Sequence record: NC_027356.1
From: Escherichia phage DT57C
Direction: 5' to 3' (one strand)
Length of the DNA stretch: 64,000 bases
The notes below the pieces were generated by a model. The model was not told the origin of the DNA and searched no databases. It saw only the letters and a list, made by a program, of their open reading frames with translations. Shown piece after piece: positions 3,421-56,506 of the stretch; the stretch's first letter is position 1; every line of letters begins with the position of its first letter. A program made the translations under genes and the position numbers.

Positions 3421-3837
3421 TTATTCACCTGCGGATTGTTTTACTTCATCTGCTACGCCTAGTAATTGCGCTACGGCGTCCAGCGTTTCTAATTTTGCGC
3501 TTTCCAGACTTGCCAGATCGTCGGCGTCTTTGATAATGCCGGAATCAATGGCATGTTTAGCAATAACGCGCACATAATGCGCCTTGCGGATTGAACTACC
3601 GCCGCCAACTTTGCGCGGTTTATCGCTTTTCTGATACGCTTTTGCGCTGGTCAATTTTGAGCGAACAGACACAGGGGAAGTAGCGCCCACTGTTTTGGCG
3701 ATCTCTTTCAGGCCGTCGCTGTTTGCGAACTCTAAACCGTTTTCATTGATTAATTGCTGATACATAGAAACGGCTTTTTGGGTATTTTCTTCATTCCATG
3801 CAAATTTTGCGGATTTTTCGGTTTTAACGTTAGTCAT
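3421..3837 (-). CDS. Hypothetical pre-early protein
   Basis: 138-aa ORF; conserved initiation region tggagtttataccATG shared with ORF 3938-4189. Confidence 0.55.
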   Translation of the reverse strand: MTNVKTEKSAKFAWNEENTQKAVSMYQQLINENGLEFANSDGLKEIAKTVGATSPVSVRSKLTSAKAYQKSDKPRKVGGGSSIRKAHYVRVIAKHAIDSGIIKDADDLASLESAKLETLDAVAQLLGVADEVKQSAGE

Positions 3838-3937
3838 GGTATAAACTCCAATTAATTTAATTTAAGGGATAAGATTAACATAATGTTAATCGTTATATTT
3901 CCCCAATAGTTCGGGGAAATATAAAGTTAACACTAAA

Positions 3938-4189
3938 CTATGCTACAGCTTCCAATTTTTCGTTACGTTGAACAACTTTTACAACGTCGCCAGATTTAAC
4001 GCGAACACTAAAAACGGTTTTTCCGTTGTTGCTACGTTCCGTTTCTGCATATACTGCATCAATTACATCGAACGGCATGAGCGCCGCGCCTTTGATGCGT
4101 TCGGCCTTTCCGGTTGCCTCGTCTGTTTTAGTAACGAAAGGGATGAAAACGGATTGACCAATTTTTGGCGCGGTGATAGCGTTTTTCAT
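3938..4189 (-). CDS. Hypothetical pre-early protein
   Basis: 83-aa ORF; same conserved RBS/start context as neighbour. Confidence 0.5.
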   Translation of the reverse strand: MKNAITAPKIGQSVFIPFVTKTDEATGKAERIKGAALMPFDVIDAVYAETERSNNGKTVFSVRVKSGDVVKVVQRNEKLEAVA

Positions 4190-4422
4190 GGTATAAACTC
4201 CAGTTATTTGATGGATTGTTCCGCATTACCTGCTAAAAAATAATAACAGGTAATAAGAAAAAATCCGCTCACCGTTAAAATCAATTTAAGGAACTCCACA
4301 CAGGCCGCTATATCCCGTTAGGGGGCGGGGCACATTATGGCAAGTACCGGCCGTCAAATTTTACCAAGTTATCGCTCTTGTTGAATCGGGTACATTTTAA
4401 AGCCTATCGGCTAGGGCGTCAA

Positions 4423-4593: not shown

Positions 4594-5220
4594 TATCGTC
4601 GTCTCCTTATAAGGTTAATAAGTTTGCCGCCGATGGGCTTTAAAATGCACCTGATTTTTAAAGAGCGCGGCGGTAAACTTTCCGCCGTGTAGTTCGTCAT
4701 TGCCGCCCTACGAGATAAATAATAGGGAATACCCAAAAAAGGTGCAACCTTAATTTTGTAAAGAAATGTAAAGAAAGCAAATACCCGCACCGCGTCCGGC
4801 GATCGCCCAAGTTTAAAGGAAACAGGCGCGCGGATACCATAAAACCGAGCTGATTGGCAAGTAATTTTTTCATTTTTATTTGCCTTGCCCTACTTGACAA
4901 AACTTAAAAAGCTCGTGGTGACGATAAACGGGCTATCCCTTTATGATGGGATACCTGAAAAATTTACCGCGTTGTAGGACGTTTTAGGCCGCTTATCTTC
5001 GATTTAACAAATATTTAACAAAAGCAAAATTGAAAAATAGTTTGAGAAGGTATTGACTTTTTAAAATCAAGACTAAACGAGTTATTTTAAAAAATTAATT
5101 AATTGACTTTTATTTGTTGTTGTGTAGTAGAAAGATAGCAGACTAATAATTGCTAGAATGATAATCATGCTGGTGATTGTAACAGACTGAACTATTAGCA
5201 GACTACTGATCCCGGAAAAT

Positions 5221-5260
5221 CTCATTAGCCAACTAACTATCTCATTAGCCAACTAACTAT
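5221..5260. repeat. Direct repeat 2 x 20 bp (ctcattagccaactaactat)
   Basis: Identical tandem copies read directly. Confidence 0.8.
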
Positions 5261-5265
5261 TTCAT

Positions 5266-5450
5266 AAGTTATAATAACTATAAAAATAATCACCGTTAAA
5301 ATAATCACTATAAAAATAATCACCATTAAAATAATAACTATAGAAATAATCACCATTATAATAATCACCATTAAAATAATCACTATAAAAATAATCACCA
5401 TTAAAATAATCACTATAAAAATAATCACCATTATTATAATCACTATAAGA
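5266..5450. repeat. AT-rich tandem repeat block (units ~12/24 bp, aataatcac[ct]a[t]taaaa)
   Basis: ~8 reiterations visible; explains spurious I/V-rich ORF 5237-5443. Confidence 0.8.
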
Positions 5451-5486
5451 AACTATCGGCTTAAGTGAGAACCACTATCATTTAAG

Positions 5487-5568
5487 TTATCCACAACGTT
5501 ATCCACAGCACAAAATGATTTGACACGATAGGCGGCGATATAAAGATTTATCCACAGACTTATCCACA
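5487..5568 (+). promoter_or_regulatory. Cluster of four DnaA boxes (TTATCCACA) in direct orientation
   Basis: Exact 9-mers at 5487, 5499, 5548, 5560; followed by LexA-like half-site ctgtatatttatccag (5579-5594). Confidence 0.6.
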
Positions 5569-5872
5569 GGTTATCCTACTGTATATTTATCCAGGGTAAA
5601 AAGATAGTGTTTACAACTGCAATCAATTTTGAGCGGCCTAAAACGCTTTCTAACGAGCTGATCGCTGTAGGGTAATATTAAAGTAAAGCCTTTACCCGTC
5701 GGCCTAGAGGCTTCGCCGTGTTTTGCTCTTTACTGCACCGCTGCGCGGTTAGCATAAAACTAGGTGTTAGGCAAGAAAAATAAAAAGTAAAGTAAACGTT
5801 GCCCCTAGAAAGAAAATAATTTTACCGGTAACATCGAAAGCGGGTAATAATTAACCTAATGTAAAGTTTTGT

Positions 5873-24576: not shown

Positions 24577-25020
24577 TTACATCGCCTGAGTAAATGTACG
24601 ACTAATAACATCGTTCTGCTGTTCACGCGTCAGTGCGTTAAAACGTACAGCGTACCCTGAAACACGGATAGTTAATTGAGGGTATTTTTCAGGATGTTTC
24701 TGTGCATCCAAAAGCTGATCACGACTTAACACATTGACATTTAGGTGTTGACCCCCTTCAATTTGAGGGGCGACTTCCACCTTGACTTCACGAAAGGATT
24801 CAGAGTCAAAGTGAGGTGTGATACCTTCTAGATCTTCAACTAGAACTTTCTGCTTAAGTTCGCCATCTTTAGAGTACAGTTGAATAATCTGATTATTATG
24901 AACAATATTAATCACGCCAGATTTAAGATTTTGATATGCTTTCATTAGCTCTCCTGTTTGGTAGTTAGTATTGGATTTGAACCACTGTAGTCGCTCCGTA
25001 TGAAGGAGGTGCATAACCAC
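24577..25020 (-). CDS. Autonomous glycyl radical cofactor (GrcA/YfiD-like)
   Basis: 147-aa ORF; C-terminus [29 protein letters not shown] closely matches the glycyl-radical domain of E. coli GrcA/PflB as recalled. Confidence 0.8.
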
Positions 25021-25220
25021 TATGCCAACTAACTATTATGTTTTACTAGACTAAGTAAGTATTCTTTATACTCTTTAGACCAGCTAGCTTTTTTAAACTT
25101 TCCTGGACGCATAGTCTTAATTCCTAGATTTGGTACTCCGGGAGGGATTTAACCCTGATCTCTCGGTTATCCGCCGAGTGCTTTGGATCGCTAAGCTACC
25201 GAAGCATTAAAATATTTACA

Positions 25221-25511
25221 TCACACACTGTCTAAGTAAGAAGTATAATGGAATTTAGTTTCTCCAGTCTTATCTACTTCTACCTCAGTTCGTGGTACTT
25301 GACGAACCACACCATGAATCATCTTATAGCGAATGCCTTTAGCTGGTTCATGATCTTTTGGAAATACTTGTTTAACCGTTACTACTTTATATCCTTCACG
25401 CGGTGTTAACACTACTACTTGATCCCCCTCTTTGATTTTCCAAGAGGGTGGAAATTCATAGGTGTATCTTTGGCCACCAATTTGTAATACTACAGAAAGA
25501 TAACGTTTCAT
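25221..25511 (-). CDS. Hypothetical protein
   Basis: 96-aa ORF directly downstream of early promoter. Confidence 0.5.
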   Translation of the reverse strand: MKRYLSVVLQIGGQRYTYEFPPSWKIKEGDQVVVLTPREGYKVVTVKQVFPKDHEPAKGIRYKMIHGVVRQVPRTEVEVDKTGETKFHYTSYLDSV

Positions 25512-25541
25512 TTGGTTTCCCTCTCATTAATTTATATAAAT

Positions 25542-25570
25542 ATTATAGCAATAAATAAGAGAGAAAGCAA
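25542..25570 (-). promoter_or_regulatory. Sigma70-type early promoter
   Basis: -10 25542-25547, -35 25565-25570 (TTGCTT). Confidence 0.6.
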
Positions 25571-25585
25571 ATGAATTTTTAAATT

Positions 25586-25660
25586 TGGTGCGGGATACGA
25601 GAGTCGAACTCGTGTCTACTGGTTGGAAGCCAGTTATTCTAGCCGCTGAACTAATCACGC
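25586..25660 (-). tRNA. tRNA, probable tRNA-Gly (anticodon UCC)
   Basis: By-eye cloverleaf: T-arm ACGAG-TTCGACT-CTCGT, acceptor with 1 mismatch, 3' CCA encoded. Confidence 0.45.
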
Positions 25661-25671
25661 ATTAATTTGGC

Positions 25672-25749
25672 TGGCAGGGGATATTGGATTTGAACCAATG
25701 ATCTCGACTTCAAATGCCGTAGCTTTAGGCCAAGCTAAGCTAATCCCCA
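25672..25749 (-). tRNA. tRNA, probable tRNA-Gln (anticodon UUG)
   Basis: T-loop TTCAAAT, U8, U33; 1:72 U-U mismatch. Confidence 0.45.
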
Positions 25750-25755
25750 ATTGTT

Positions 25756-25831
25756 TGGCAGAAGGTAGTGGATTTGAACCACTGATCAGGATTTCAGAGA
25801 CCCCGGCCTTAACCGACTTGGCTCAGGTTCT
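25756..25831 (-). tRNA. tRNA-like, possibly tRNA-Gln (CUG); acceptor stem imperfect
   Basis: Good T-arm and anticodon arm (CU-CUG-AA), two C-C mismatches in acceptor; overlaps 3' end of ORF 25786-25995. Confidence 0.3.
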
Positions 25832-25995
25832 TCAAGGCGCTTACCTTCATGATCTACTCGAATGACTCCGCATCCTTCGCAAACCACAACTGCACCATAA
25901 CCTTCTTTGACTTCGGCTTCTGTAATTAGACCAGATAAGTCACCAGTATCTCTGCCCCACATATCAATGGAGCATTGTTTGCAGAAATCAGCCAT
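25786..25995 (-). CDS. Small Zn-ribbon protein (CxxC...CxxC)
   Basis: 69-aa ORF; two CxxC pairs; C-terminal codons overlap tRNA-like sequence. Confidence 0.4.
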   Translation of the reverse strand: MADFCKQCSIDMWGRDTGDLSGLITEAEVKEGYGAVVVCEGCGVIRVDHEGKRLEEPEPSRLRPGSLKS

Positions 25996-25997
25996 AA

Positions 25998-26225
25998 TTA
26001 ATCCTTATTACAAGTGGTAGAGAGGATGGTACGATCGGAGATCCAACCGCCAGTGTAAGCACCATTGACTTTATATTCAGTCAAAGTACCGTGACCACGA
26101 ATAGCGAAAACTGTTAGGGTTTTCGTGCCCCCATAACCATCTTTAACAGTTACGGTACAATCTAATGATGTGCCGATAGTGCAGCCAGCTAAAGTCAGAG
26201 CAGCAATCAATACTAAGTATTTCAT
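25998..26225 (-). CDS. Small lipoprotein
   Basis: 75-aa ORF; signal peptide with lipobox LAGC. Confidence 0.45.
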   Translation of the reverse strand: MKYLVLIAALTLAGCTIGTSLDCTVTVKDGYGGTKTLTVFAIRGHGTLTEYKVNGAYTGGWISDRTILSTTCNKD

Positions 26226-26248
26226 GTTGTTATCCTTGTTAAGTTAAT

Positions 26249-26323
26249 TGGTGCATCCTCAGGGAATCGAACCCCAATCGTAAAGTTCGTGGCTTTACAT
26301 TCTTTCCATTGAAATAAGGACGC
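26249..26323 (-). tRNA. tRNA, probable tRNA-Arg (anticodon ACG)
   Basis: Acceptor 7/7 (with G-U), T-loop TTCGATT, anticodon loop CC-ACG-AA, CCA encoded. Confidence 0.5.
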
Positions 26324-26329
26324 AATATT

Positions 26330-26406
26330 TGGGGTGGCTAGTGGAATTCGAATCCACATAGGCCTGATTCACAATCAGGATCATTAACCAATTATGATAT
26401 AGCCAC
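26330..26406 (-). tRNA. tRNA, probable tRNA-His (anticodon GUG)
   Basis: Perfect acceptor GTGGCTA/TAGCCAC, T-loop TTCGAAT, anticodon loop TT-GTG-AA. Confidence 0.55.
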
Positions 26407-26630
26407 AATTGAAAACTCGCAGGGTTAGCGAAACCATCCTCAATTAGCATGTTCTAGAATACTAATCAAGTTATCTACTATTGCACGCAGCTCAAGACGA
26501 GTACGAATTTTCAATTGTGGCGGCTCTCAGAAACTCTTCTACTCTAGTCTTAGCAGCTTACTCCCGAACGCATGTCGGGGAAGTCTTACCAAGAGCATCA
26601 AATAGCACCGTTACACTTTGAGCCATTATT

Positions 26631-26725
26631 TGGAGGTAGGTAAGGGGATCGAACCCTTACACCGTATCACTACGATCAACCGATTTCAAGTCGGAGTCCA
26701 GCGCCAGCCGTTGGATTGACTTACC
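26631..26725 (-). tRNA. Long tRNA, probable tRNA-Ser (anticodon UGA)
   Basis: T-arm AAGGG-TTCGATC-CCCTT, long variable region, anticodon loop CU-UGA-AA. Confidence 0.4.
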
Positions 26726-26737
26726 ATATAAGTTGTT

Positions 26738-26829
26738 TGGCGGAAGAGGAGAGATTTGAACTCTCAAGCCGTTTTACCAGTCAGCCACTTTCCAAGCGGT
26801 TTTCGTCGCCAATTCGATTTGCTCTTCCA
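26738..26829 (-). tRNA. Long tRNA, probable tRNA-Ser (anticodon GGA)
   Basis: Perfect acceptor GGAAGAG/CTCTTCC, T-arm GAGAG-TTCAAAT-CTCTC, long variable arm. Confidence 0.5.
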
Positions 26830-26940
26830 ATAATAAGATGATGCCTCTATCACGCCAGGCAGTTACGCCTCGCTGGGATTCGAACCCATTAAAACAGCTC
26901 AACCGAGATAGTAGGTTTAATTTACTCTGACCATCAAATT

Positions 26941-27017
26941 TGGTGCGTGACAAGGGATTCGAACCCTCAAAACCCGACTTCTAGGGACGGTATGTATGCC
27001 AATTCCATCAATCACGC
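26941..27017 (-). tRNA. tRNA (anticodon uncertain, possibly UAG)
   Basis: Acceptor GCGTGAT/GTCACGC, T-loop TTCGAAT, CCA encoded. Confidence 0.45.
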
Positions 27018-27022
27018 GTATT

Positions 27023-27096
27023 TGGTGGAGAAAGAGGGAGTTGAACCCTCGTCTTCTGCGTGCAAAGCAGATGTTCTACCATTAAACTATATCCCC
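27023..27096 (-). tRNA. tRNA, probable tRNA-Ala (anticodon UGC)
   Basis: Perfect anticodon stem TCTGC/GCAGA with loop TT-TGC-AC, T-loop TTCAACT. Confidence 0.5.
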
Positions 27097-27334
27097 AAAT
27101 TCTTTAGTTTACTAAGGCTATTAGCTCGGCGTAACTATAGCACCTTCGCTTCGAGCGGAAGGAACTACGTCATCTCGCAAACCCGATACACTATTCAGTT
27201 GCCGCTGAATCTAGTGGACTAATCTAGAACCTCTCCCGAGTCATAGGGATCGTGCTTTTTGGCAGCCAGTCCTAGGTCGAGCTAATACCTTAGTGAACTA
27301 TGATGAGGATTTCTCCCCATCAATTTATATAAAT

Positions 27335-27363
27335 ATTATAACAAGAAATTAAGCATTAAGCAA
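27335..27363 (-). promoter_or_regulatory. Sigma70-type early promoter driving an ORF-free stretch
   Basis: -10 27335-27340, -35 27358-27363; downstream minus-strand sequence has only a 12-codon ORF. Confidence 0.55.
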
Positions 27364-27383
27364 ATGAGTTTTTTCTTGAAATT

Positions 27384-27460
27384 GGTAGCGGGTTCCAGTA
27401 CTGCCCTGGACTTACTTAGCTTATGAGACTAAGAAGAACTCTATGCCTTCCACCCGCAAT
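27384..27460 (-). tRNA. tRNA-like, possibly CAU anticodon (Met/Ile2); non-canonical T-loop
   Basis: Anticodon loop CU-CAU-AA with stem TTAGT/GCTAA; T-loop GGCAGTA atypical. Confidence 0.35.
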
Positions 27461-27463
27461 TAT

Positions 27464-27540
27464 TTGGTCAGTGCGGCAGGACTCGAACCTGCGACCCGCA
27501 TCATCCGAGGGTCCCACGCTACCAACTGCGCTACACACTG
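27464..27540 (-). tRNA. tRNA (anticodon not resolved)
   Basis: Acceptor CAGTGTG/CGCACTG, T-arm GCAGG-TTCGAGT-CCTGC, D-loop AGTTGGTA, CCA encoded. Confidence 0.45.
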
Positions 27541-27548
27541 AAATTTTA

Positions 27549-27896
27549 TTAGTTTAACCGTAAAGTATTATCTACTTCACCATTAATTGTTCGGCATTCC
27601 TCTGGGATTGCTGGGGTGGCCTTGTATTCCCACCACTCAGCACCATCATATTCCCCACGTTCTAGCCAAGTTCCATCGGCAAACCATATATTACCATAAA
27701 GTAATTGTCCACCGTACCCAGAATCATATTCAAAGTCTAGGTTATTAAGAAAATCCTCAATATCTTCTTCTGTATAACCTAAAGGTAGTACCCAAACTTT
27801 TTTATCCCCATAATACCCGAATTCTATTTTAATACACTTAACTTCAGAATTAATATTTTTTAAGGCGAGTAACAGCTCTTCTTTAGCATTACGCAT
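27549..27896 (-). CDS. Hypothetical acidic protein
   Basis: 115-aa ORF. Confidence 0.5.
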   Translation of the reverse strand: MRNAKEELLLALKNINSEVKCIKIEFGYYGDKKVWVLPLGYTEEDIEDFLNNLDFEYDSGYGGQLLYGNIWFADGTWLERGEYDGAEWWEYKATPAIPEECRTINGEVDNTLRLN

Positions 27897-27921
27897 AGTA
27901 TATTCTCATACTGAGTTAATT

Positions 27922-27996
27922 TGGCGCGACCGATGGGATTTGAACCCACATTCCCCGTGACAGGGGAGTACCATTACCAAGCCAGCCCCTGTCGCA
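27922..27996 (-). tRNA. tRNA (anticodon not resolved)
   Basis: Acceptor GCGACAG/CGGTCGC (1 mismatch), T-arm GTGGG-TTCAAAT-CCCAT, CCA encoded. Confidence 0.45.
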
Positions 27997-28004
27997 TAAT
28001 TCAT

Positions 28005-28190
28005 TTACTCATATTTGAGTTTTTCAATAGCTGCATTAAGTTCTTTTAGAGCTTCACGACGTTCTACCTGACCTTGAAGTTCTTCAAGAAGTTCCGCTTT
28101 CAGAGTCTCAATAATTTTACCACGAACCTTGATATTATTAATCAGATTATCACGATCAGCTTCTAGTCGAGCAATTGCATGAGTTGTCAT
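28005..28190 (-). CDS. Small coiled-coil protein
   Basis: 61-aa ORF. Confidence 0.4.
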   Translation of the reverse strand: MTTHAIARLEADRDNLINNIKVRGKIIETLKAELLEELQGQVERREALKELNAAIEKLKYE

Positions 28191-28292
28191 ATCTATTTCC
28201 TCAGTTATTAATGAAAATGGTATCTGTGGCTGAATTCGATGTCAGCAATGATAGCTGGTTGGCTACCGGTTTACTTAACTCTACACAGAATT

Positions 28293-28372
28293 TGGCGGGC
28301 CGTGTAGGATTCGAACCACCAACCCCGAAGGGCACGGATTTACAGACCGCTGCAATAGCCATTCTGCCAACG
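28293..28372 (-). tRNA. tRNA-like element (possible tRNA-Tyr-like anticodon loop CU-GUA-AA); stems imperfect
   Basis: T-loop TTCGAAT and variable-arm hairpin CCC-TTCG-GGG present, but acceptor/T stems do not pair cleanly. Confidence 0.25.
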
Positions 28373-28448
28373 ATGTATATTTAAAAGTATTCAAATACTT
28401 GTTTAAACACTTTTAAATATGTTTCCAACTTAGATAACTATTATATCT

Positions 28449-28487
28449 AGTTTTAAGGCACTGAGCAAGTCAGATTTTGAAGAATTT
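28449..28487. other. 10-bp perfect inverted repeat (cactgagcaa...ttgctcagtg) in promoter-proximal leader
   Basis: Read directly; lies between promoter at 28572-28601 and the tRNA-like element. Confidence 0.6.
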
Positions 28488-28571
28488 GCTCAGTGCTATA
28501 TTAGTTAGTCGAACTTAGGAGTAACAATTAAAGAGAATGGGAGTTCGAAAACTTCATCAATTTATATAACT

Positions 28572-28601
28572 ATTATATCAGAAATTTAAAGCAAAAGGCA
28601 A
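28572..28601 (-). promoter_or_regulatory. Sigma70-type early promoter (TTGCCT-18-TATAAT)
   Basis: -10 28572-28577, -35 28596-28601. Confidence 0.45.
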
Positions 28602-28631
28602 GTACTTTTTTAAAAATTCTGTTTGGAGGAG

Positions 28632-28838
28632 CTAAACTCCAGATTCTTCAGCCAAGTCTAGACTAATAAGAGTTATAGCCATAATTGCCGCACCGTGTTC
28701 TTTTTCTCCGGTGTTTTTAGCAGAGTCTATAATACCCTTAATCTGTTCGTAATAACTTTTTACTTCTTGTTCAATGCCGGCCTCGGCTATCATGCCTTTA
28801 GTCATGAGTCGTTGCATGGTAATTTCACGGTTAGCCAT
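28632..28838 (-). CDS. Hypothetical protein
   Basis: 68-aa ORF. Confidence 0.45.
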   Translation of the reverse strand: MANREITMQRLMTKGMIAEAGIEQEVKSYYEQIKGIIDSAKNTGEKEHGAAIMAITLISLDLAEESGV

Positions 28839-29013
28839 GATGTTTCTCCAGTTTCATCTTTAATAGTTTACAAATGAAGTCAATATCTTCATCCGTGCCT
28901 AGATCTCTATCTTCAAGAGTTGCCTTGAAGTTTTTAGTCAACTCCATAAGGATGACTTCCCTAGAACGACGTGTTGGCGGAGGTGGATGTCTATACATCT
29001 TATTTCCTTAATT

Positions 29014-29088
29014 TGGTGGGTCGGAGGAGAATCTAACTCCTACTCGTTAGCTTATGAGGCCACCGCTTTAACTTTAAGCTACCGACCC
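29014..29088 (-). tRNA. tRNA, probable CAU anticodon (Met or Ile2)
   Basis: Perfect acceptor GGGTCGG/CCGACCC, T-arm AGGAG-TTAGATT-CTCCT, loop CU-CAU-AA. Confidence 0.5.
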
Positions 29089-29094
29089 TATGTT

Positions 29095-29183
29095 TGGCGG
29101 AAGAAGCGGGAATCGAACCCACAAGGCTATATTTCAAACCGACAGATTAGCAATCTGCTGCAATACCGTTATGCTATTCTTCC
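29095..29183 (-). tRNA. Long tRNA, probable tRNA-Ser (anticodon GCU)
   Basis: Perfect acceptor GGAAGAA/TTCTTCC, T-arm GTGGG-TTCGATT-CCCGC, loop TT-GCT-AA, long variable arm. Confidence 0.5.
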
Positions 29184-29204
29184 GAATTTATAAGATATAT
29201 TATA

Positions 29205-29741
29205 TTAGAAATTTAGCTTCATAGCAAGAAAATTTTTCAAGTTTTCGGTAGACATCTCATCCACATCTACAGGAGAAACAAACCCATCTAATTGTCTAGC
29301 AAATTTTTCACCGGCAGGATCATTATCCCCAACAGCTACCAATTTAAAAGGTAGTAATTTCAATTGCTTTAACAACGCTTTTCCGGGGGAAGAACCCAAC
29401 ATTGCTAGGGCAGGATAACCAGCATTATGTAATGCTACAGCCTTAAATACAGATTCAGCAATCAATACTACTTTTTCATCCCCATTGAGAGTTTCTAGCC
29501 CCCATACACACTGTGTGGTAGAATAAGTAAAATATCTAGCTTCAGAGGGGCACTTACCATGACCTTTTGGAGCAGAAGGATTATAAATCTGATAGCCTCT
29601 CAGCATCCCAGAGAAGTCGTACAATGGGACTGTTAGCCATCCCTCCGGGCTTAACCAGCAATGATATTTATCTGTATCAAACCCTCTGGATAAGAGATGT
29701 TCTGTTAGTTCATCAACAGTCATATTAGATTCCTCTCTCAA
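29205..29741 (-). CDS. Hypothetical protein with TOPRIM-like motifs
   Basis: 178-aa ORF; LIAESVFKA and VAVGDNDPAG resemble TOPRIM E / DxD motifs. Confidence 0.4.
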   Translation of the reverse strand: MREESNMTVDELTEHLLSRGFDTDKYHCWLSPEGWLTVPLYDFSGMLRGYQIYNPSAPKGHGKCPSEARYFTYSTTQCVWGLETLNGDEKVVLIAESVFKAVALHNAGYPALAMLGSSPGKALLKQLKLLPFKLVAVGDNDPAGEKFARQLDGFVSPVDVDEMSTENLKNFLAMKLNF

Positions 29742-29761
29742 ATTATAAATATATTATACAG

Positions 29762-29790
29762 AGAATTTAGCATTCAAGCAATTGAATTTT
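29762..29790 (-). promoter_or_regulatory. Sigma70-type early promoter
   Basis: -10 29762-29767, -35 29785-29790 (TTGCTT). Confidence 0.6.
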
Positions 29791-29867
29791 TAAACTTTTT
29801 AGTGGAAAATCTCAAGACATTTAATGGCAGCACGTTGTTGCTGTAATAAGAGTATATGGTTCTAAAG

Positions 29868-29910
29868 AACCAAACAATAAAGCCCTGCGCTCTCCAGGGA
29901 ACGCAGGGCT
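29868..29910 (-). terminator. Rho-independent terminator (agccctgcg...cgcagggct)
   Basis: 9-bp stem followed on minus strand by T-rich tract. Confidence 0.55.
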
Positions 29911-29934
29911 TACTTCAGAGATTACATGCGGGTG

Positions 29935-30882
29935 TTATTTGTTACGCATGTCCATGATCATCTGGCCATCGTAACCAGTTCCCACAACTGTTTGCGGTAC
30001 ACCACCTTGATACTTCTGAGCACGAATCATTTCAACTTCTAGTTGTTTCCAACGAATCATCTCAGGAGTAATGGTACGTTGCAGAGCGGCGTTAGCCTCA
30101 GCTTCTTTCTTAGCTGCGTACAGTTTAGCATCTGCATCACGTTCGTTTGCAATAGCTTGGTTGTTACGAGCTTCACGATCTGCTTCTGCTTGTTTAACCT
30201 TCTGCTGTGCTTCTTGTTCAACACGAGCCAACTCAGCTTTCGCAGCATTAACTTGTTCTTCACGAACTTTGGTATTCTGTACCTGTTCCATGATTACAGG
30301 CGGCAAAGTAATATCCTGAAGGAACACTTGCTTAACTGTGTAACCATAAGGGCGTGCATACTCTTCAACTTCCTGTTGAATTGCAGTTTGTAATTGAGCC
30401 TGAATTTTAGCATCAAACAAATCTTGTGCTTTAGGAACAGACTTGCCGAACTCACGAATAGTAGACAGTAATTTTTCAGTTACATATTTGTCTAACGCTT
30501 GATCCTGAGTACCTGCATTAATACGGTTAATCGGTGCCTTAGAACCATCAAATTGTAACATAACAGTCAGGTCAACAGTGGATTTAAACTTATCCTGACT
30601 AGGAACCTGAAGTTTATCTAATTTTACAGCAATATCTTTTGTACTAAAAGTATCGAAAGATGCAAAGGGGTTTACAAGATGGAAGCCAGGTAATACTGGG
30701 TTAGGATCTACTTTACCAAGAAATGTTTGGGTTTTAACCGTACCATCGGAAACAATAGTATATGAATTAAAAGCTAGGATTAAACCTGCTAAACCAACTA
30801 CAGCACCAATACCCCAACGTTTAATAGTGCGCATTACTTTTTGCTCAGAAGTCAGTTCTTTCATATTTTTAGTATTAAACAT
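29935..30882 (-). CDS. SPFH/band-7 family membrane protein (HflC/prohibitin-like)
   Basis: 315-aa ORF; N-terminal TM helix, long Ala/Glu/Gln-rich coiled-coil C-terminus typical of SPFH proteins. Confidence 0.55.
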   Translation of the reverse strand: MFNTKNMKELTSEQKVMRTIKRWGIGAVVGLAGLILAFNSYTIVSDGTVKTQTFLGKVDPNPVLPGFHLVNPFASFDTFSTKDIAVKLDKLQVPSQDKFKSTVDLTVMLQFDGSKAPINRINAGTQDQALDKYVTEKLLSTIREFGKSVPKAQDLFDAKIQAQLQTAIQQEVEEYARPYGYTVKQVFLQDITLPPVIMEQVQNTKVREEQVNAAKAELARVEQEAQQKVKQAEADREARNNQAIANERDADAKLYAAKKEAEANAALQRTITPEMIRWKQLEVEMIRAQKYQGGVPQTVVGTGYDGQMIMDMRNK

Positions 30883-30916
30883 GTATTTCCTTTGTTTTAG
30901 TTACAGTTAATAAAAT

Positions 30917-30991
30917 TGGCCGAGGTGACAGGATTCGAACCTGCATAAAGGAATTTAGAAGACTCCTGCCTCTCCCTTAGACTACACCCCG
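30917..30991 (-). tRNA. tRNA, probable tRNA-Arg (anticodon UCU)
   Basis: Acceptor CGGGGTG/CACCTCG, T-arm GCAGG-TTCGAAT-CCTGT, loop CU-UCU-AA. Confidence 0.5.
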
Positions 30992-31492
30992 TTTAAGTAT
31001 TTTTAAGAACTCTCGTAAAAACTCTTAAAAATACAGACGATACCGGGAGAGTCATAAGTCTCACTCATTAAGTATTTCAAGACAAAATACAGTAACGTCT
31101 ATTATTTTCCAGTTTAAGTCAAGGTGACTTAGTGGTTATGCCCTGCGGTATACTGAGGACTCGGTTAGGCTAGGGTCATGACTCCCCGCTTTTTGCTGCT
31201 ACTCAACAGGAATTATCGCGAATTACCTGTGCTATTGTGCACCATTAGTGGCATCTCTCATGCCAGCATTTCCCACTTTGTGGATAGTTTGAAAAACTAC
31301 TCCGATATGGAGGGAGAACTTCACTATCCTAGAATACCTTCTAAAGTTCTTCTTTAGCCTGGACATAGTTAAATCGTAATAAAACTATTCAGCAGACTGG
31401 TTGATTAGCCTGGAACCAACTACCGCGTGGTTTAGGCAGTGCGCAACTAACCTCGGAAGCTTTTACGTTAAAAGCACCAGTTATCCAGCTCT

Positions 31493-31562
31493 TACCGATC
31501 GTAGGATTCGAACCTACATCTTCCACCAGTTACGGCTTGATAATACCGTTTATACTAGATCG
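31493..31562 (-). tRNA. tRNA-like (anticodon not resolved; no encoded CCA)
   Basis: Perfect T-arm GTAGG-TTCGAAT-CCTAC and acceptor GCCGATC/GATCGGT. Confidence 0.35.
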
Positions 31563-31640
31563 GCAGTGTTACTACATAAGTGATTTCCACACCCCACCAT
31601 CAATAAATTAGGGAAGAATTACTCTCTAATTTATGAATAT

Positions 31641-51330: not shown

Positions 51331-51359
51331 TTGCTTTCAGGAAAATTTTTCTGTATAAT
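51331..51359 (+). promoter_or_regulatory. Strong early promoter resembling T5 PN25 as recalled (TTGCTT-17-TATAAT with A-rich upstream element)
   Basis: Sequence tcataaaaaatttatttgctttcaggaaaatttttctgtataatagattcataaatttgagagaggag read directly; identity to PN25 is from memory, not a search. Confidence 0.65.
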
Positions 51360-51390
51360 AGATTCATAAATTTGAGAGAGGAGTTTAAAT

Positions 51391-52356: not shown

Positions 52357-52385
52357 TTGCTTAATCCTACAATTCTTGATATAAT
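52357..52385 (+). promoter_or_regulatory. Sigma70-type promoter (TTGCTT-17-TATAAT)
   Basis: Read directly. Confidence 0.6.
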
Positions 52386-52442
52386 ATTCTCATAGTTTGA
52401 AAGAACTATTCTGTTTAATTCTTAATTAAGGAAATATAAAAT

Positions 52443-52853
52443 ATGACTACTCCAACTCAGTGGACTGATGAACTGTTCGAAAAAATGTCTTCCGAATACG
52501 TTGCTCGTATGGAGCAATTCCCAGAGGATGAACGTCCGAGTGTTAGCATGGAAATTGTTAGTGAAATTGCCCAGGAAAATGGTGTAACTCCGAACGGTTT
52601 TCGTATGAAGCTGACTAAAGCAGGTTTGTATATTAAGAAAGCTGCTGGCTCTGCTTCTAAATCTAGTGCATCTACTGGAGAAAAAGCTTCCGGTGGTTCT
52701 CGTACCTCCAAAGCCCAGGCTCATGCCGACCTTCGTTCAGCGTTCTCTGATGCTGGCTTAGCACCAGATTTTCTGGATGATGCAATTATCGACAAACTGA
52801 CCGGTAAAGCGGCTGCTCATCTGGCAGAAGCAATCCGAGCTATCACTAAGTAA
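52443..52853 (+). CDS. Hypothetical protein (host-optimal codon usage)
   Basis: 136-aa ORF; antisense track ORFs 52422-52724 and 52457-52711 rejected. Confidence 0.6.
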   Translation: MTTPTQWTDELFEKMSSEYVARMEQFPEDERPSVSMEIVSEIAQENGVTPNGFRMKLTKAGLYIKKAAGSASKSSASTGEKASGGSRTSKAQAHADLRSAFSDAGLAPDFLDDAIIDKLTGKAAAHLAEAIRAITK

Positions 52854-53205: not shown

Positions 53206-53514
53206 ATGAGCGATCAGGTAAACCAAAACTATGAAGGACACGTTGATGATCAGTCAATCCTTCTATGGGAAAAAGAAGGGGAACAAGTAAGATTGACAGT
53301 ATCTGAATTTCGTGGGAATCTATACATGGGAATTAGGTATTGGCTCCAGGATATTACTGGAGAATGGTTTCCAACGAAATCCGGCTTCTCTTTTCCGTAC
53401 ACTCTAGAAACTACTTCGCAGCTATTCTATGCTTTTACGCAAATCCTTAGTGAATCTGAGGTTTTACATGAAGTACAGAAACGAGCTGAAGAACTCAAAG
53501 CCAAGAATGCCTAG
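53206..53514 (+). CDS. Hypothetical protein
   Basis: 102-aa ORF. Confidence 0.5.
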   Translation: MSDQVNQNYEGHVDDQSILLWEKEGEQVRLTVSEFRGNLYMGIRYWLQDITGEWFPTKSGFSFPYTLETTSQLFYAFTQILSESEVLHEVQKRAEELKAKNA

Positions 53515-53528
53515 TTCTTGGCTTTTTC
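53500..53528 (+). terminator. Rho-independent terminator (gccaagaa...ttcttggc ttttt)
   Basis: 8-bp stem plus T-run, overlaps 3' end of CDS. Confidence 0.55.
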
Positions 53529-53541
53529 TTTATAAATGTAT

Positions 53542-53570
53542 TTGCTTTCAACTCAGTTTTGATATATAAT
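53542..53570 (+). promoter_or_regulatory. Sigma70-type promoter (TTGCTT-17-TATAAT)
   Basis: Read directly. Confidence 0.6.
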
Positions 53571-53599
53571 ATTTATATAAATTAATGAGAGGATCAATC

Positions 53600-53800
53600 A
53601 TGGCAATGACAGTAACACTTCCCAAGATTCAAGCAAAACTTAATCTGCTTTCCACAGCACGCATTAATTATCAAGATAACATAGGCACAGTAAATCAAAA
53701 GGCGTACAAAGATGCGTTTCTGAAAGAATCTGCTGATTTGATGGATATGGTTACACAATATAATAAAGAACTCAAGATGGAAATCGCCGATGATGAATAA
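53600..53800 (+). CDS. Small hypothetical protein (start at ATG 53600)
   Basis: Track ORF 53585-53800; GAGAGGA RBS favours internal ATG. Confidence 0.45.
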   Translation: MAMTVTLPKIQAKLNLLSTARINYQDNIGTVNQKAYKDAFLKESADLMDMVTQYNKELKMEIADDE

Positions 53801-54764
53801 TGTAAAAGGCTTTATTAAGCGTTGTCAAGAAGCATATTATCAAGGCATGTCTTTAATCTCTGATGAAGAATATGATCGCCTAGTAAAACGCTTCCCGTTA
53901 GAGGAAGAGATCGGGCCTAAGGGTGATATTCCACATCTGTACCGTATGTATTCTTTACAGAAAGTTTATTATAATCGTGGAGATAAACCCCCATTTAACC
54001 CATTAGGTCAAGTAGAAACTGATAAGTTAGATGGTTGTGCAATTTCCTTATTATATATTAATGGCGAATTTGTTCAAGCATTAACTCGTGGTAACGGTAT
54101 TCTAGGTAATGATGTCACAAGCAACGTAAGATTGCTGAACATCCCTAAAAAGATTTCTCAAAAAGTACCTACTCAAATCACTGGTGAAGTTCTAATTACA
54201 AAAGAAGTAGAAAATAAACGTAACTTTGCCTCTGGTGCTATTAACCTCAAAGATAGTGATGATTTCGTACAGCGTATCGGGGAAGGTGGTTTAATCTTCG
54301 TTGCATACGGTATCCAGTGTTCTGCTGAATCTGTAGGTATTACAGAAGCGTATTTAAAAGATATGCTTTGGCTAGAGAATGAGAACTTCTTAACAGTTGT
54401 TAATGTACGTTCCTTCTTTAAATGGATTCCAACGGACGGTAAAGTTGTTCGTATTAATGATAACAACAAATTCTTCCGTGAAGGCTGGACTAATAAATTT
54501 CCTCGCGGTGCATTTGCTATTAAAGAGGATGAAGAAGGTGAGACTACAACTCTTACTAAAGTTGAATGGAATGTAGGGGCTTCTGGTAAAGTAACTCCAG
54601 TCGGTTATTTTGAACCAGTAATTATTGATGATGCTACAATTGTTAAAGCGACTCTTAATAACGTTGATTATATTAACTCTCTCGATCTAGAGATCGGTTG
54701 CCAGATTCGAGTGATTCGTGCTGGTGGTGTAATCCCGTGCATAGTAGAGCGAGTTTACGATTAA
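53790..54764 (+). CDS. lig: NAD-dependent DNA ligase, N-terminal (adenylation/OB) part
   Basis: 324-aa ORF; adenylation motif KLDG (ETDKLDGCAISL). Confidence 0.7.
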   Translation: MMNNVKGFIKRCQEAYYQGMSLISDEEYDRLVKRFPLEEEIGPKGDIPHLYRMYSLQKVYYNRGDKPPFNPLGQVETDKLDGCAISLLYINGEFVQALTRGNGILGNDVTSNVRLLNIPKKISQKVPTQITGEVLITKEVENKRNFASGAINLKDSDDFVQRIGEGGLIFVAYGIQCSAESVGITEAYLKDMLWLENENFLTVVNVRSFFKWIPTDGKVVRINDNNKFFREGWTNKFPRGAFAIKEDEEGETTTLTKVEWNVGASGKVTPVGYFEPVIIDDATIVKATLNNVDYINSLDLEIGCQIRVIRAGGVIPCIVERVYD

Positions 54765-54907
54765 TACATAACCCTTTGCTACCCCTCTACCATATCGGAA
54801 TTATAAAGTGGTTATTGACATTTTCGCCGCTTAGGTATATACTATTATCATTCAGTTGAGGGATAGAAAGTTATGGCGAGGGTAAGCAAAGTTAGTTAAA
54901 ATTGTAG

Positions 54908-54936
54908 TTGCTAAATGCTTAAATACTTGCTATAAT
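54908..54936 (+). promoter_or_regulatory. Sigma70-type promoter (TTGCTA-17-TATAAT) between the two ligase ORFs
   Basis: Read directly. Confidence 0.55.
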
Positions 54937-54966
54937 ATTTATATAAATTGATAAGGAAGAAATTTG

Positions 54967-55746
54967 ATGAAAATCGAAATTCCAACACAATGTCCCTCTT
55001 GTGGTTCTAAGCTAGATCTTGTCAACGGACAATTATTCTGTCGTAATAAGTCCAACTGTCCAGCGCAATCAAGTAAGTTAATTGAGAACTTCTGTTCAAA
55101 AATGAAGTTAAAGGGCTTTGGCCCGAAAACTATTGAGAAGCTGGAGCTGACGAAGATTTCAGAACTATTTTACCTAACCGAAGAAGATTTGGTTAGAGCC
55201 GTGGGTAGCAAGGTTGCCGCTAAGTTAATTAGCGAATTAAATACTAAAGTTCGCGGAGACATTGACTTTGGTTCAGTTCTCGGTTCTTTAGGAATCCCTC
55301 TAATTGGAGAGGTTGCAGCAAAGAAATTATCCCAAAATTGCACTAGCTTCCACGATGTGAAGGCTGACGGCAAGGCTGGAGAAAACTATAAAGCCTGGCT
55401 AAATTCCCCACAAGGCAAGGATGTTATCGAATTACCGTGGAAATTCTCAAATGGTATTAAAGGTGCTAAAGCTGACATCATCATTACAGATGAATTAGTT
55501 GCCCCGCCAAATGGAATCACGGTGTGTATTACCGGATCTTTGCAAGATTTTGCAAATCGAACGGATGCAACAAACTATCTAGAAGGTCTAGGGTATACTG
55601 TTAAAAAATCAGTTACCAAAGACGTTAAATACCTCATCTGTGAGGATGAATCTAAGCGTTCTTCCTCATCTTATAAGAAAGCCGAAACGAATGGGATAGA
55701 AATCCTGTCGATTAAAGAACTATTGGAGAAAAATAATAATGTCTAA
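54967..55746 (+). CDS. lig: NAD-dependent DNA ligase, C-terminal (Zn-finger/HhH/BRCT) part
   Basis: Cys4 Zn finger CPSCGSKL...CRNKSNC; ATG 54967 with AGGAAG RBS. Confidence 0.65.
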   Translation: MKIEIPTQCPSCGSKLDLVNGQLFCRNKSNCPAQSSKLIENFCSKMKLKGFGPKTIEKLELTKISELFYLTEEDLVRAVGSKVAAKLISELNTKVRGDIDFGSVLGSLGIPLIGEVAAKKLSQNCTSFHDVKADGKAGENYKAWLNSPQGKDVIELPWKFSNGIKGAKADIIITDELVAPPNGITVCITGSLQDFANRTDATNYLEGLGYTVKKSVTKDVKYLICEDESKRSSSSYKKAETNGIEILSIKELLEKNNNV

Positions 55747-56506
55747 ACTGAACTGGAACGTAGAAGGTGTAACCGAGTCTCTGAAAGCAAAAGCCACTGC
55801 TCTGGGTGTTGCTGTAATCTCTCAAGAACAAGTAGCTGCTATCGCTGCTGAACTGGCTGCTGAAACTGGCAAAGACGTTACCGCTCGCTCTGTTGGCTCT
55901 AAGCTGCGTAAAGAAGGTTTCGAAGTACAGAAAGCTAACGAAGTACAGAAATCCCCGTGGACTCCTGAGCAGGAAGCTGAACTGGTTGATTTCCTGAACT
56001 CTCATGCTGGTCAGTATACTTATGCTGAAATCGCTGCTGCTGTAGCTGGTGGTCAGTTCGGTGCTAAACAGGTACAGGGTAAGATCCTGAGTCTGGAAAT
56101 GACCGCCTCTGTTAAACCAACTGAAAAAGCTGCTGCTGTTCGTTCCTTCACTCCGGATGAAGAAACTGATTTTGTTAATCAGGTTGTTGCTGGTGCTACT
56201 ATTGAAGCTATCGCTGCCCACTTCGGTCGCAATATTAAGCAGATCCGTGGTAAAGCTCTGAGTCTGCTTCGTGAAGGTCGTATCGCCGCTATGCCGGTAC
56301 AGGAAACTTCAAGTGCTAAAACTCGTGAAGATCTGCTAGAAGGTCTGGATCTGGCTAACATGACTGTTGCTGAGATCGCTGAGAAAACTGGTAAGTCTGA
56401 GCGCGGTGTTAAATCTATGCTGTCTCGTCGTGGTCTGGTTGCTAAGGACTATGATGGTGCCGCTAAGCGTGCTAAACTGGATGCAAAAGCTGCGGCTGCT
56501 GAATAA
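55739..56506 (+). CDS. Abundant early protein with host-optimal codons (possibly D5-like DNA-binding protein)
   Basis: 255-aa ORF; Ala-rich; codon usage ctg/gct/ggt/cgt; strong terminator downstream. Confidence 0.4.
   Translation: MSKLNWNVEGVTESLKAKATALGVAVISQEQVAAIAAELAAETGKDVTARSVGSKLRKEGFEVQKANEVQKSPWTPEQEAELVDFLNSHAGQYTYAEIAAAVAGGQFGAKQVQGKILSLEMTASVKPTEKAAAVRSFTPDEETDFVNQVVAGATIEAIAAHFGRNIKQIRGKALSLLREGRIAAMPVQETSSAKTREDLLEGLDLANMTVAEIAEKTGKSERGVKSMLSRRGLVAKDYDGAAKRAKLDAKAAAAE

Follow-up and report, generated by a model that had tools for sequence, protein, structure and literature searches.

The 64,000-nt stretch of Escherichia phage DT57C DNA analysed here (NC_027356.1; hereafter the window) carries an NAD+-dependent DNA ligase on two separate open reading frames (ORFs), which raises the question of whether the enzyme works as two subunits, whether the gap between the genes is the remnant of an insertion, or whether the break is simply an error. 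An earlier note on this sequence had offered the first two as alternatives and had named a sequencing frameshift as what would refute its reading. The window is 99.1% identical to Escherichia phage DT571/2, a T5-like phage, and its two proteins share 97-99% identity with the ligA and ligB products of the T5 group; in many of the 517 phage records that match the region, both genes are annotated, as subunits A and B of an NAD-dependent DNA ligase. We are highly confident that the pair represents ligA and ligB of a T5-like phage (Tequintavirus), encoding a heterodimeric NAD+-dependent DNA ligase. The two-gene ligase of these phages is already known and routinely annotated (for T5 ligA/ligB, the T5 genome paper of Wang et al. 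2005, as cited in PMC1684257; the names ligA and ligB are also used in PMC3632103). The feature looks functional and is conserved, but it is not new.

As the note had described, the two ORFs are separate (53790-54764 and 54967-55746, both on the + strand), the adenylation and OB domains lie in the first and the zinc finger, helix-hairpin-helix (HhH), and BRCT domains in the second, according to Pfam together with alignment to Escherichia coli LigA, and the spacer, estimated at about 200 bp, measures 202 nt. The large subunit, LigA, has 324 amino acids comprising domain Ia, the nucleotidyltransferase domain, and the OB fold, with Pfam matches to DNA_ligase_aden (PF01653; E = 2.3e-23) and DNA_ligase_OB (PF03120; E = 6.2e-22, residues 252-322). 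The adenylated lysine of its KLDG motif is K79 (codon 54024-54026). Among the best 120 homologue clusters of this ORF, which range from 98 to 46% identity and from 240 to 337 amino acids and contain adenylation and OB domains only, residues K79, D81, G82, R100, E133, D216, R221, K245, and R310 are invariant, and 62 columns, including all nucleotidyltransferase motif residues, are at least 97% conserved in the cluster representatives. R310 is the conserved equivalent of E. coli R379. An NMN-binding domain Ia is also present: the pattern AYYQG...SDEEYDRL aligns to domain Ia of the E. coli and Deinococcus enzymes, the counterparts of E. coli Y22/H23, D32, Y35, and D36 are Y16, Y17, D25, Y28, and D29, and Y16, Y28, and D29 are nearly invariant in the same 120 clusters. 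The NMN-binding residues of domain Ia confer NAD+ specificity on LigA. The AlphaFold model of the large subunit (pLDDT 88.9) has two N-terminal helices and finds its best PDB matches in 9I5I and 9HU3, and the sequence matches chain 9hu3_A with E = 8e-103.

The small subunit, LigB, has 259 amino acids counted from the ATG at 54967, and consists of a Cys4 zinc finger, an HhH domain, and a BRCT domain. The four zinc-finger cysteines (C9, C12, C25, and C31, at 54991-55059) are invariant in nine genera. The BRCT domain (about 55510-55728) is recognized by Pfam with E = 1.3e-8, and the HhH match (E = 3.3e-5) scores 24.4 bits, below the gathering score of 27. LigB aligns to residues 402-529 of E. coli LigA (PDB 2OWO; E = 2e-12), which span the zinc finger and HhH, and to residues 581-666; its match to chain 9hu3_B ("DNA ligase subunit B") has E = 1.3e-79. 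The start at ATG 54967 is conserved across genera, fits the MKI... N-terminus of the PDB chain B, and is preceded at a distance of 7 nt by the ribosome-binding site AAGGAAG (54953-54959). A TTG at 54964 was considered as an alternative start and rejected, as it is not conserved across genera.

Together the two subunits reproduce the single-chain LigA of E. coli (PDB 2OWO and 5TT5) module by module: domain Ia, nucleotidyltransferase, OB, Cys4 zinc finger, HhH, and BRCT occur in the same order, with key residues conserved, at about 25-28% identity. The alignment to bacterial LigA that the note had proposed places the break at the OB/zinc-finger linker, at about 393|400 in E. coli LigA; ORF1 residue 321 pairs with E. 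coli position 390 and ORF2 residue 3 with position 402, and nothing is lost between them. The matching E. coli segment exceeds the large subunit by about 70 residues, the invariant R221 of motif IV stands where E. coli has K290, and the OB residue R333 is replaced by alanine, substitutions that suggest that catalytic details may differ from those of the E. coli enzyme. Whereas in the LigA family all domains lie on one polypeptide, here they are spread over two ORFs that differ in frame and lie 202 nt from each other, and it is this two-polypeptide state that sets the phage enzyme apart from the family.

The split is old. The same arrangement, with its 202-nt spacer, is found in 29 of 30 T5-like loci, and a split at the same break point occurs in at least nine genera of the Demerecviridae, taking in T5-like phages, phages of Klebsiella, Pectobacterium, Providencia, Proteus, and Aeromonas, and three lineages of Vibrio phages. 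None of the best 120 ORF1 homologue clusters contains a fused ligase. The closest reference is phage T5 itself (NC_005859), in which ligA (T5.116) and ligB (T5.117) show the same genes, order, and break point as in the window, apart from a few per cent of substitutions and one additional small ORF in the window described below. The genes would have parted exactly at the OB/zinc-finger linker before the Demerecviridae diversified.

The non-coding spacer (54765-54966) has stops in all six frames and carries two promoters. The note's intervening promoter and ribosome-binding site are both there, but a single promoter had been expected and two were found. The T5 RefSeq record annotates them as P-K 28b and P-K 28a, and both of these 75-nt stretches are 100% identical in the window. 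P-K28b (54795..54869, + strand) is of sigma-70 type and matches 11 of 12 consensus positions, with TTGACA at 54815-54820 and TATACT at 54838-54843 separated by a 17-nt gap. P-K28a (54888..54962, + strand), likewise of sigma-70 type, matches 10 of 12, with TTGCTA at 54908-54913, a 17-nt gap, an extended -10 element (TGcTATAAT) ending at 54936, and an ATATT early-type discriminator; its stretch also includes the ligB ribosome-binding site. ATATT is a signature of T5 early promoters (PMC7472727). In a spacer alignment covering six genera, the hexamers of both promoters fall within invariant blocks, and no other non-coding stretch of more than one base is invariant. A generic promoter scan of this A+T-rich region shows no overall enrichment (7 found, 7.2 expected), and the prediction of P-K28b and P-K28a as promoters rests on their cross-genus conservation and on the T5 annotation. 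The early-type family TTGCT-N18-TATAATATT, which includes P-K28a and a site upstream of ligA, has 24 sites where 2.2 are expected; the P-K28b type is found once in the window. P-K28a and P-K28b are historically important strong promoters of T5. Our literature search on P-K28a/b gave nothing relevant.

Two further interpretations of the spacer were examined and rejected. It is identical to that of T5 at 201 of 202 positions and 95-99.5% identical across 29 T5-like loci, and its mean identity of 99% compares with 85-86% at third codon positions of ligA and ligB; the D5 gene and promoter regions elsewhere (52380-52500) reach the same level, however, so the spacer is not an exceptional, ultra-conserved element. 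A mini-ORF, MARVSKVS (54874-54900), lies behind a GAGGGA motif, but its ATG is absent in Klebsiella and Pectobacterium phages, and its conservation among T5-like phages simply reflects that of the spacer as a whole.

Of the competing explanations, the one that fares best holds that a mobile element, either a group I intron or a free-standing homing endonuclease gene, once inserted into an ancestral gene for a single-chain ligase and broke it in two; the spacer would be its footprint and the two-subunit enzyme a by-product. What speaks for it comes from relatives. Salmonella phage SP3 and one other phage carry a 213-amino-acid GIY-YIG endonuclease gene in the ligA/ligB gap, inserted right at the ligA stop codon, and Vibrio phages have a DprA-like gene (phrog_768) and small ORFs there; the gap is thus a tolerated landing site. 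The SP3 ORF, comparable to the free-standing GIY-YIG homing endonuclease genes of phages (T4 seg/mob type), separates the two halves of an essential replication function, but in the window such a gene is absent and the spacer contains no endonuclease coding remnant. The search of the spacer for intron or endonuclease remnants that the note had suggested found none. Rfam (E ≤ 1) returned no intron family, its only two hits lying far below gathering scores and outside the spacer; the predicted RNA fold of the spacer is not significant (z = -0.77), and a structured RNA or riboswitch there was rejected on the same results; and a tblastn search of the window with the SP3 protein gave nothing significant, the best match (E = 0.81) lying away from the spacer. 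Over its last 13 codons (frame +0, ...PSTISEL*) the SP3 endonuclease ORF does overlap sequence shared with the spacer; we rejected this as a remnant because the inserted ORF simply runs into the flank to the first stop. It is the promoter hexamers that the spacers of different genera have in common. The endonuclease occupies the gap in only 3 of 50,697 phage records (two phages), which points to a secondary arrival, and since the split is older than the family, no trace of a founding element can now be detected. The note's idea of an intron or endonuclease remnant is therefore not supported for the present sequence, and we consider this explanation quite unlikely. Given the mobile and accessory genes in relatives, the gap may have originated by insertion, an event that would then predate the whole phage family.

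The note's other alternative, a two-subunit enzyme, gains support from the genes themselves, both halves being complete and under purifying selection, and from an orthologue. PDB entries 9HU3 and 9I5I, released in January and February 2026, bear the title [quoted passage not shown], and the ligase chain B is 100% identical to that of Providencia phage PR1. Its two chains have the same domain split as the pair in the window, and the PR1 spacer also carries the tandem promoter hexamers. The heterodimer on nicked DNA is known for PR1 from these entry titles, and would extend to the window by analogy, the PR1 orthologues being only about 52-60% identical to its subunits. Literature searches found no paper on the PR1 ligase structure or on T5 ligase biochemistry, and no biochemical data on the T5 or DT571/2 pair itself. 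From the conserved residues and the PR1 complex we infer that the LigA and LigB of the window would likewise assemble and seal nicks with NAD+. The large subunit would react with NAD+, become adenylated at K79, and carry the catalytic chemistry, and the small subunit would supply the DNA-binding half of the clamp; associating non-covalently around the nick, the two would do the job of the single-chain bacterial LigA, probably acting on Okazaki fragments as well as on interruptions in the phage's own DNA strands.

A different possibility is that the products are not parts of a single enzyme: the small subunit would serve mainly as a DNA-binding/BRCT scaffold in replication or late transcription, and the large one would ligate alone or with a host partner. 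That ligB has its own strong promoters and overlaps the start of D5, and that in Vibrio phages other genes lie between the two, at distances of up to about 1 kb, would fit such a division of labour. Against it, the PR1 orthologues form a heterodimer in crystals with nicked DNA, LigA enzymes cut after the OB fold self-adenylate and do not ligate (Haloferax LigN, PMC1684257), and the two genes still lie close together in all lineages surveyed, the distance never exceeding about 1 kb. We judge separate functions to be very unlikely. Weakest of all is the proposal that the two ORFs reflect an error or gene decay, whether through the sequencing frameshift envisaged in the note or through recent disruption of a single ligase gene, and it has virtually no chance of being right: nothing favours it beyond the existence of two ORFs, and these lie in different frames on either side of a spacer with 4-7 stops in each frame, lose no LigA residues at the junction, keep their catalytic residues invariant without a fused form in any of the 120 clusters, and recur in the same layout in hundreds of independent genomes; 29 of the 30 T5-like loci have this arrangement, and the nine genera listed above share the split.

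The heterodimer would draw its subunits from two transcription units. Upstream of ligA, a terminator-like hairpin (53497..53525, + strand; a 12-bp stem followed by a T run) closes the preceding unit, that of the T5.115 homologue, and a T5 early-type promoter (53542..53570, + strand; TTGCTT-17-TATAAT, then ATT) heads the ligA unit; T5 has an annotated promoter at the equivalent place, and the 19-mer TATAATATTTATATAAATT of this promoter is identical to the copy before ligB. Between this promoter and ligA, the window differs from T5 in having an extra accessory ORF of 66 amino acids (53600..53800, + strand), which matches phrog_8267 (E = 7e-43), is annotated in DT571/2, and is missing in T5 and L020; its stop codon overlaps the ligA start. 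The ligA gene would be transcribed from its own early promoter upstream. A terminator is annotated after ligA in PR1, whereas none was detected after ligA in the window, so that read-through into ligB is possible. P-K28b and P-K28a, as promoters for the host RNA polymerase, would start a new unit comprising ligB and D5 and probably continuing into the helicase gene. D5, a DNA-binding protein gene (55739..56506, + strand; identified from sequence and from its annotation in DT571/2 and T5), has a start that overlaps the ligB stop by 8 nt (ATGTCTAA), as it also overlaps the ligB end in T5; the overlap places D5 in the same P-K28-driven unit, and the two genes are presumably co-transcribed.

The promoter inputs of the two genes differ: ligA has one early promoter, and ligB has the unusual P-K28b together with the early-type P-K28a and is coupled to D5. 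One could imagine that the split is regulatory rather than a neutral accident, the phage controlling the supply of one subunit so as to permit nick sealing during replication and to stop it before packaging; we regard this as unlikely, and what bears on it is the cross-genus conservation of the tandem promoters and the single P-K28b-type site in the window. Progeny T5 DNA carries characteristic single-strand interruptions, and if the regulatory reading were true, progeny DNA would keep them by this means.

The T5-type phage ligase is a textbook example of a naturally split LigA, and the value of the feature described here lies mainly in its correct annotation; nothing here alters the known picture. 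The modest additions of this analysis are the fixation of the split in all homologue clusters down to 46% identity, the conservation of the tandem promoters across genera, and the occasional presence of a GIY-YIG endonuclease or other genes in the gap. The feature puts P-K28a and P-K28b inside what would otherwise be one gene, and it shows that LigA can do without a covalent connection between its catalytic core and the Zn-HhH-BRCT clamp.

The NAD-dependent DNA ligase of Escherichia phage DT57C is encoded by two open reading frames. ORF1 (ligA, plus strand, 53790-54764; 324 aa) contains the NAD-dependent ligase adenylation domain (E = 2.3e-23) and the ligase OB fold (E = 6.2e-22); ORF2 (ligB, plus strand, from an ATG at 54967 to 55746; 259 aa) contains a BRCT domain and weak HhH matches. 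DT57C is a T5-like phage; across 53500-56000 it shares 99.1% identity with Escherichia phage DT571/2, and of the 517 phage records that match this stretch, 427 do so over at least 80% of its length. In the annotation of DT571/2, T5, and many others, the pair is labeled as large and small, or A and B, subunits of an NAD-dependent DNA ligase. An earlier note had described a two-ORF ligase here; because ORF calls, domain matches, and the records' annotation agree, both that observation and its coordinates were correct.

The note had proposed an alignment to bacterial LigA; with E. coli LigA (PDB 2OWO) it pairs residue 321 of ORF1 with residue 390 and residue 3 of ORF2 with residue 402, which places the cut within the short linker between OB fold and zinc finger, at approximately 393|400 of E. 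coli LigA, without loss of residues. ORF1 also contains domain Ia, the determinant of NAD+ specificity: its AYYQG...SDEEYDRL aligns with the region of E. coli Y22/H23, D32, Y35, and D36. Residues K79, D81, G82, R100, E133, D216, K245, and R310 are invariant among 120 cluster representatives of ORF1 homologs, as are the small-subunit zinc-finger cysteines C9, C12, C25, and C31 across nine phage genera. At motif IV, all 120 clusters of the split ligase have an arginine (R221, codon 54450-54452), whereas the single-chain E. coli LigA has K290. The position of E. coli OB-fold R333 is Ala, Lys, Arg, or Gly in the split-ligase clade. The best solved matches to an AlphaFold model of ORF1 (pLDDT 88.9) are the ligase of phage PR1 and then bacterial LigA.

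The consensus promoter that the note had seen between the ORFs proved to be one of two. A pattern scan of the 202-nt noncoding spacer (54765-54966) identified sigma-70-type sites at 54815-54843 (TTGACA-17-TATACT) and 54908-54936 (TTGCTA-17-TATAAT, with an extended -10 TG), and the T5 reference genome carries "promoter P-K 28b" and "promoter P-K 28a" as annotations in its ligA-ligB spacer. The two spacers are identical at 201 of 202 positions, and the 75-nt stretches of P-K28b (54795-54869) and P-K28a (54888-54962) are 100% identical to T5. In a six-genus alignment, invariant blocks longer than two bases occur in the noncoding part only around the hexamers of both promoters. Conservation of the spacer exceeds that at synonymous sites in the genes on either side; since it is matched in other promoter regions and in the D5 gene, it is a feature of these genomes in general. 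No significant RNA fold was found in the spacer (z = -0.77).

The type of P-K28b occurs once in the window. P-K28a belongs to a family of promoter-like TTGCT-N18-TATAATATT sites, 24 of which were seen (14363-54939) versus 2.2 expected in the window; it has the ATATT discriminator reported for all known T5 early promoters (PMC7472727). Its 19-mer TATAATATTTATATAAATT recurs exactly at 53565, upstream of the ligA unit. Family sites up to 43.7 kb are minus-strand and those from 43.8 kb onward plus-strand, which is the mark of a divergent switch in early transcription. One site, at 51331-51362 (TTGCTTTCAGGAAAATTTTTCTGTATAATAGA), appears to match the core sequence of T5's classic P-N25 promoter. On the minus strand, 13 tRNA genes cluster at 24959-31565; one of them (31492-31565) is called as tRNA-Ser with ACT, an unusual anticodon.

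An origin of the split by insertion is a slim possibility. The ligA-ligB gap is a tolerated site for extra genes. In Salmonella phage SP3 and one other phage it contains a gene for a 213-aa GIY-YIG endonuclease (Pfam E = 1.1e-5), annotated only as a hypothetical protein (4965-5606 of our SP3 locus, L024, equivalent to MG387042 64022-64660). This ORF is present in 3 of 50,697 phage records, representing SP3 (GenBank and RefSeq copies) and vB_Sen_SG_WM_RUS_R2; the SP3 insert, of 592 bp, lies exactly at the ligA stop codon, with the P-K28 promoters intact downstream. The gap of Vibrio phages JSF10 and Luma holds a DprA-like gene (phrog_768) and a small ORF, and that of Vibrio phage 70E35-1 two small ORFs; such phrog_768 or small-ORF stretches span 3453-4285, 3469-4364, 3457-3917, and 2005-2517 of the Vibrio and Pectobacterium phage loci L034, L037, L035, and L033, respectively. 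The same phrog_768 gene lies directly upstream of ligA in Pectobacterium phage My1, and a 73-aa ORF behind JSF10 ligA matches phrog_13916, labeled "DNA ligase" but far too small for one. Against an insertion origin, these genes are lineage-specific additions, later than a split that predates the family, and the intron or endonuclease remnant suspected in the note was not borne out: a search of the DT57C spacer for both found neither, nor any Rfam match.

A sequencing frameshift, the artefact that the note had raised, is ruled out because the ORFs are in different reading frames, the spacer has 4-7 stops per frame in all six frames, its length is exactly the same in 29 of 30 T5-like loci, the split recurs in phages of Klebsiella, Pectobacterium, Providencia, Proteus, and Aeromonas and in three Vibrio phage lineages, and none of the best 120 homolog clusters (98 down to 46% identity) from a search of 5.8 billion proteins is fused, all being 240-337 aa with adenylation and OB domains only. 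Among the lineages examined, all phages with the split ligase are Demerecviridae or close relatives.

A two-subunit enzyme, the other possibility given in the note, is the best explanation, because a LigA-type enzyme truncated behind its OB fold can self-adenylate but cannot ligate (PMC1684257) and because structures exist for Providencia phage PR1. The two PDB entries, 9HU3 and 9I5I (release dates January and February 2026), bear the title [quoted passage not shown]; of their chains, one matches ORF1 (E = 8e-103) and the other ORF2 (E = 1.3e-79), with chain B showing 100% identity to Providencia phage PR1. The DT57C proteins are the matching orthologs, from which we infer assembly and activity of the pair. 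The large subunit would perform NAD+-dependent adenylation and catalysis, the small subunit would provide the DNA clamp, and the two would assemble noncovalently on the nick.

An early promoter at 53542-53570 would drive ligA, with a small accessory ORF between them, and P-K28b and P-K28a would drive ligB. The small ORF (53600-53800; phrog_8267; 66 aa from an ATG at 53600), whose stop overlaps the ligA start, is missing from T5 and some relatives, and in phage oldekolle two small ORFs occupy its place; the promoter-ligA interval is a variable slot for accessory ORFs. The end of ligB and the beginning of D5 share 8 nt (ATGTCTAA, 55739-55746), which points to coupled translation of the small ligase subunit and the D5 DNA-binding protein.

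The split ligase of T5 was already described in the T5 genome paper, and T5 has the same ligA/ligB pair and the same two named spacer promoters. The finding is thus real, correctly read, and already known, having been published with the T5 genome and routinely annotated, with promoters named in the T5 record and an orthologous heterodimer structure public. The one further point of some interest is that the separate promoter inputs might, as a long shot, let the phage regulate the sealing of nicks.
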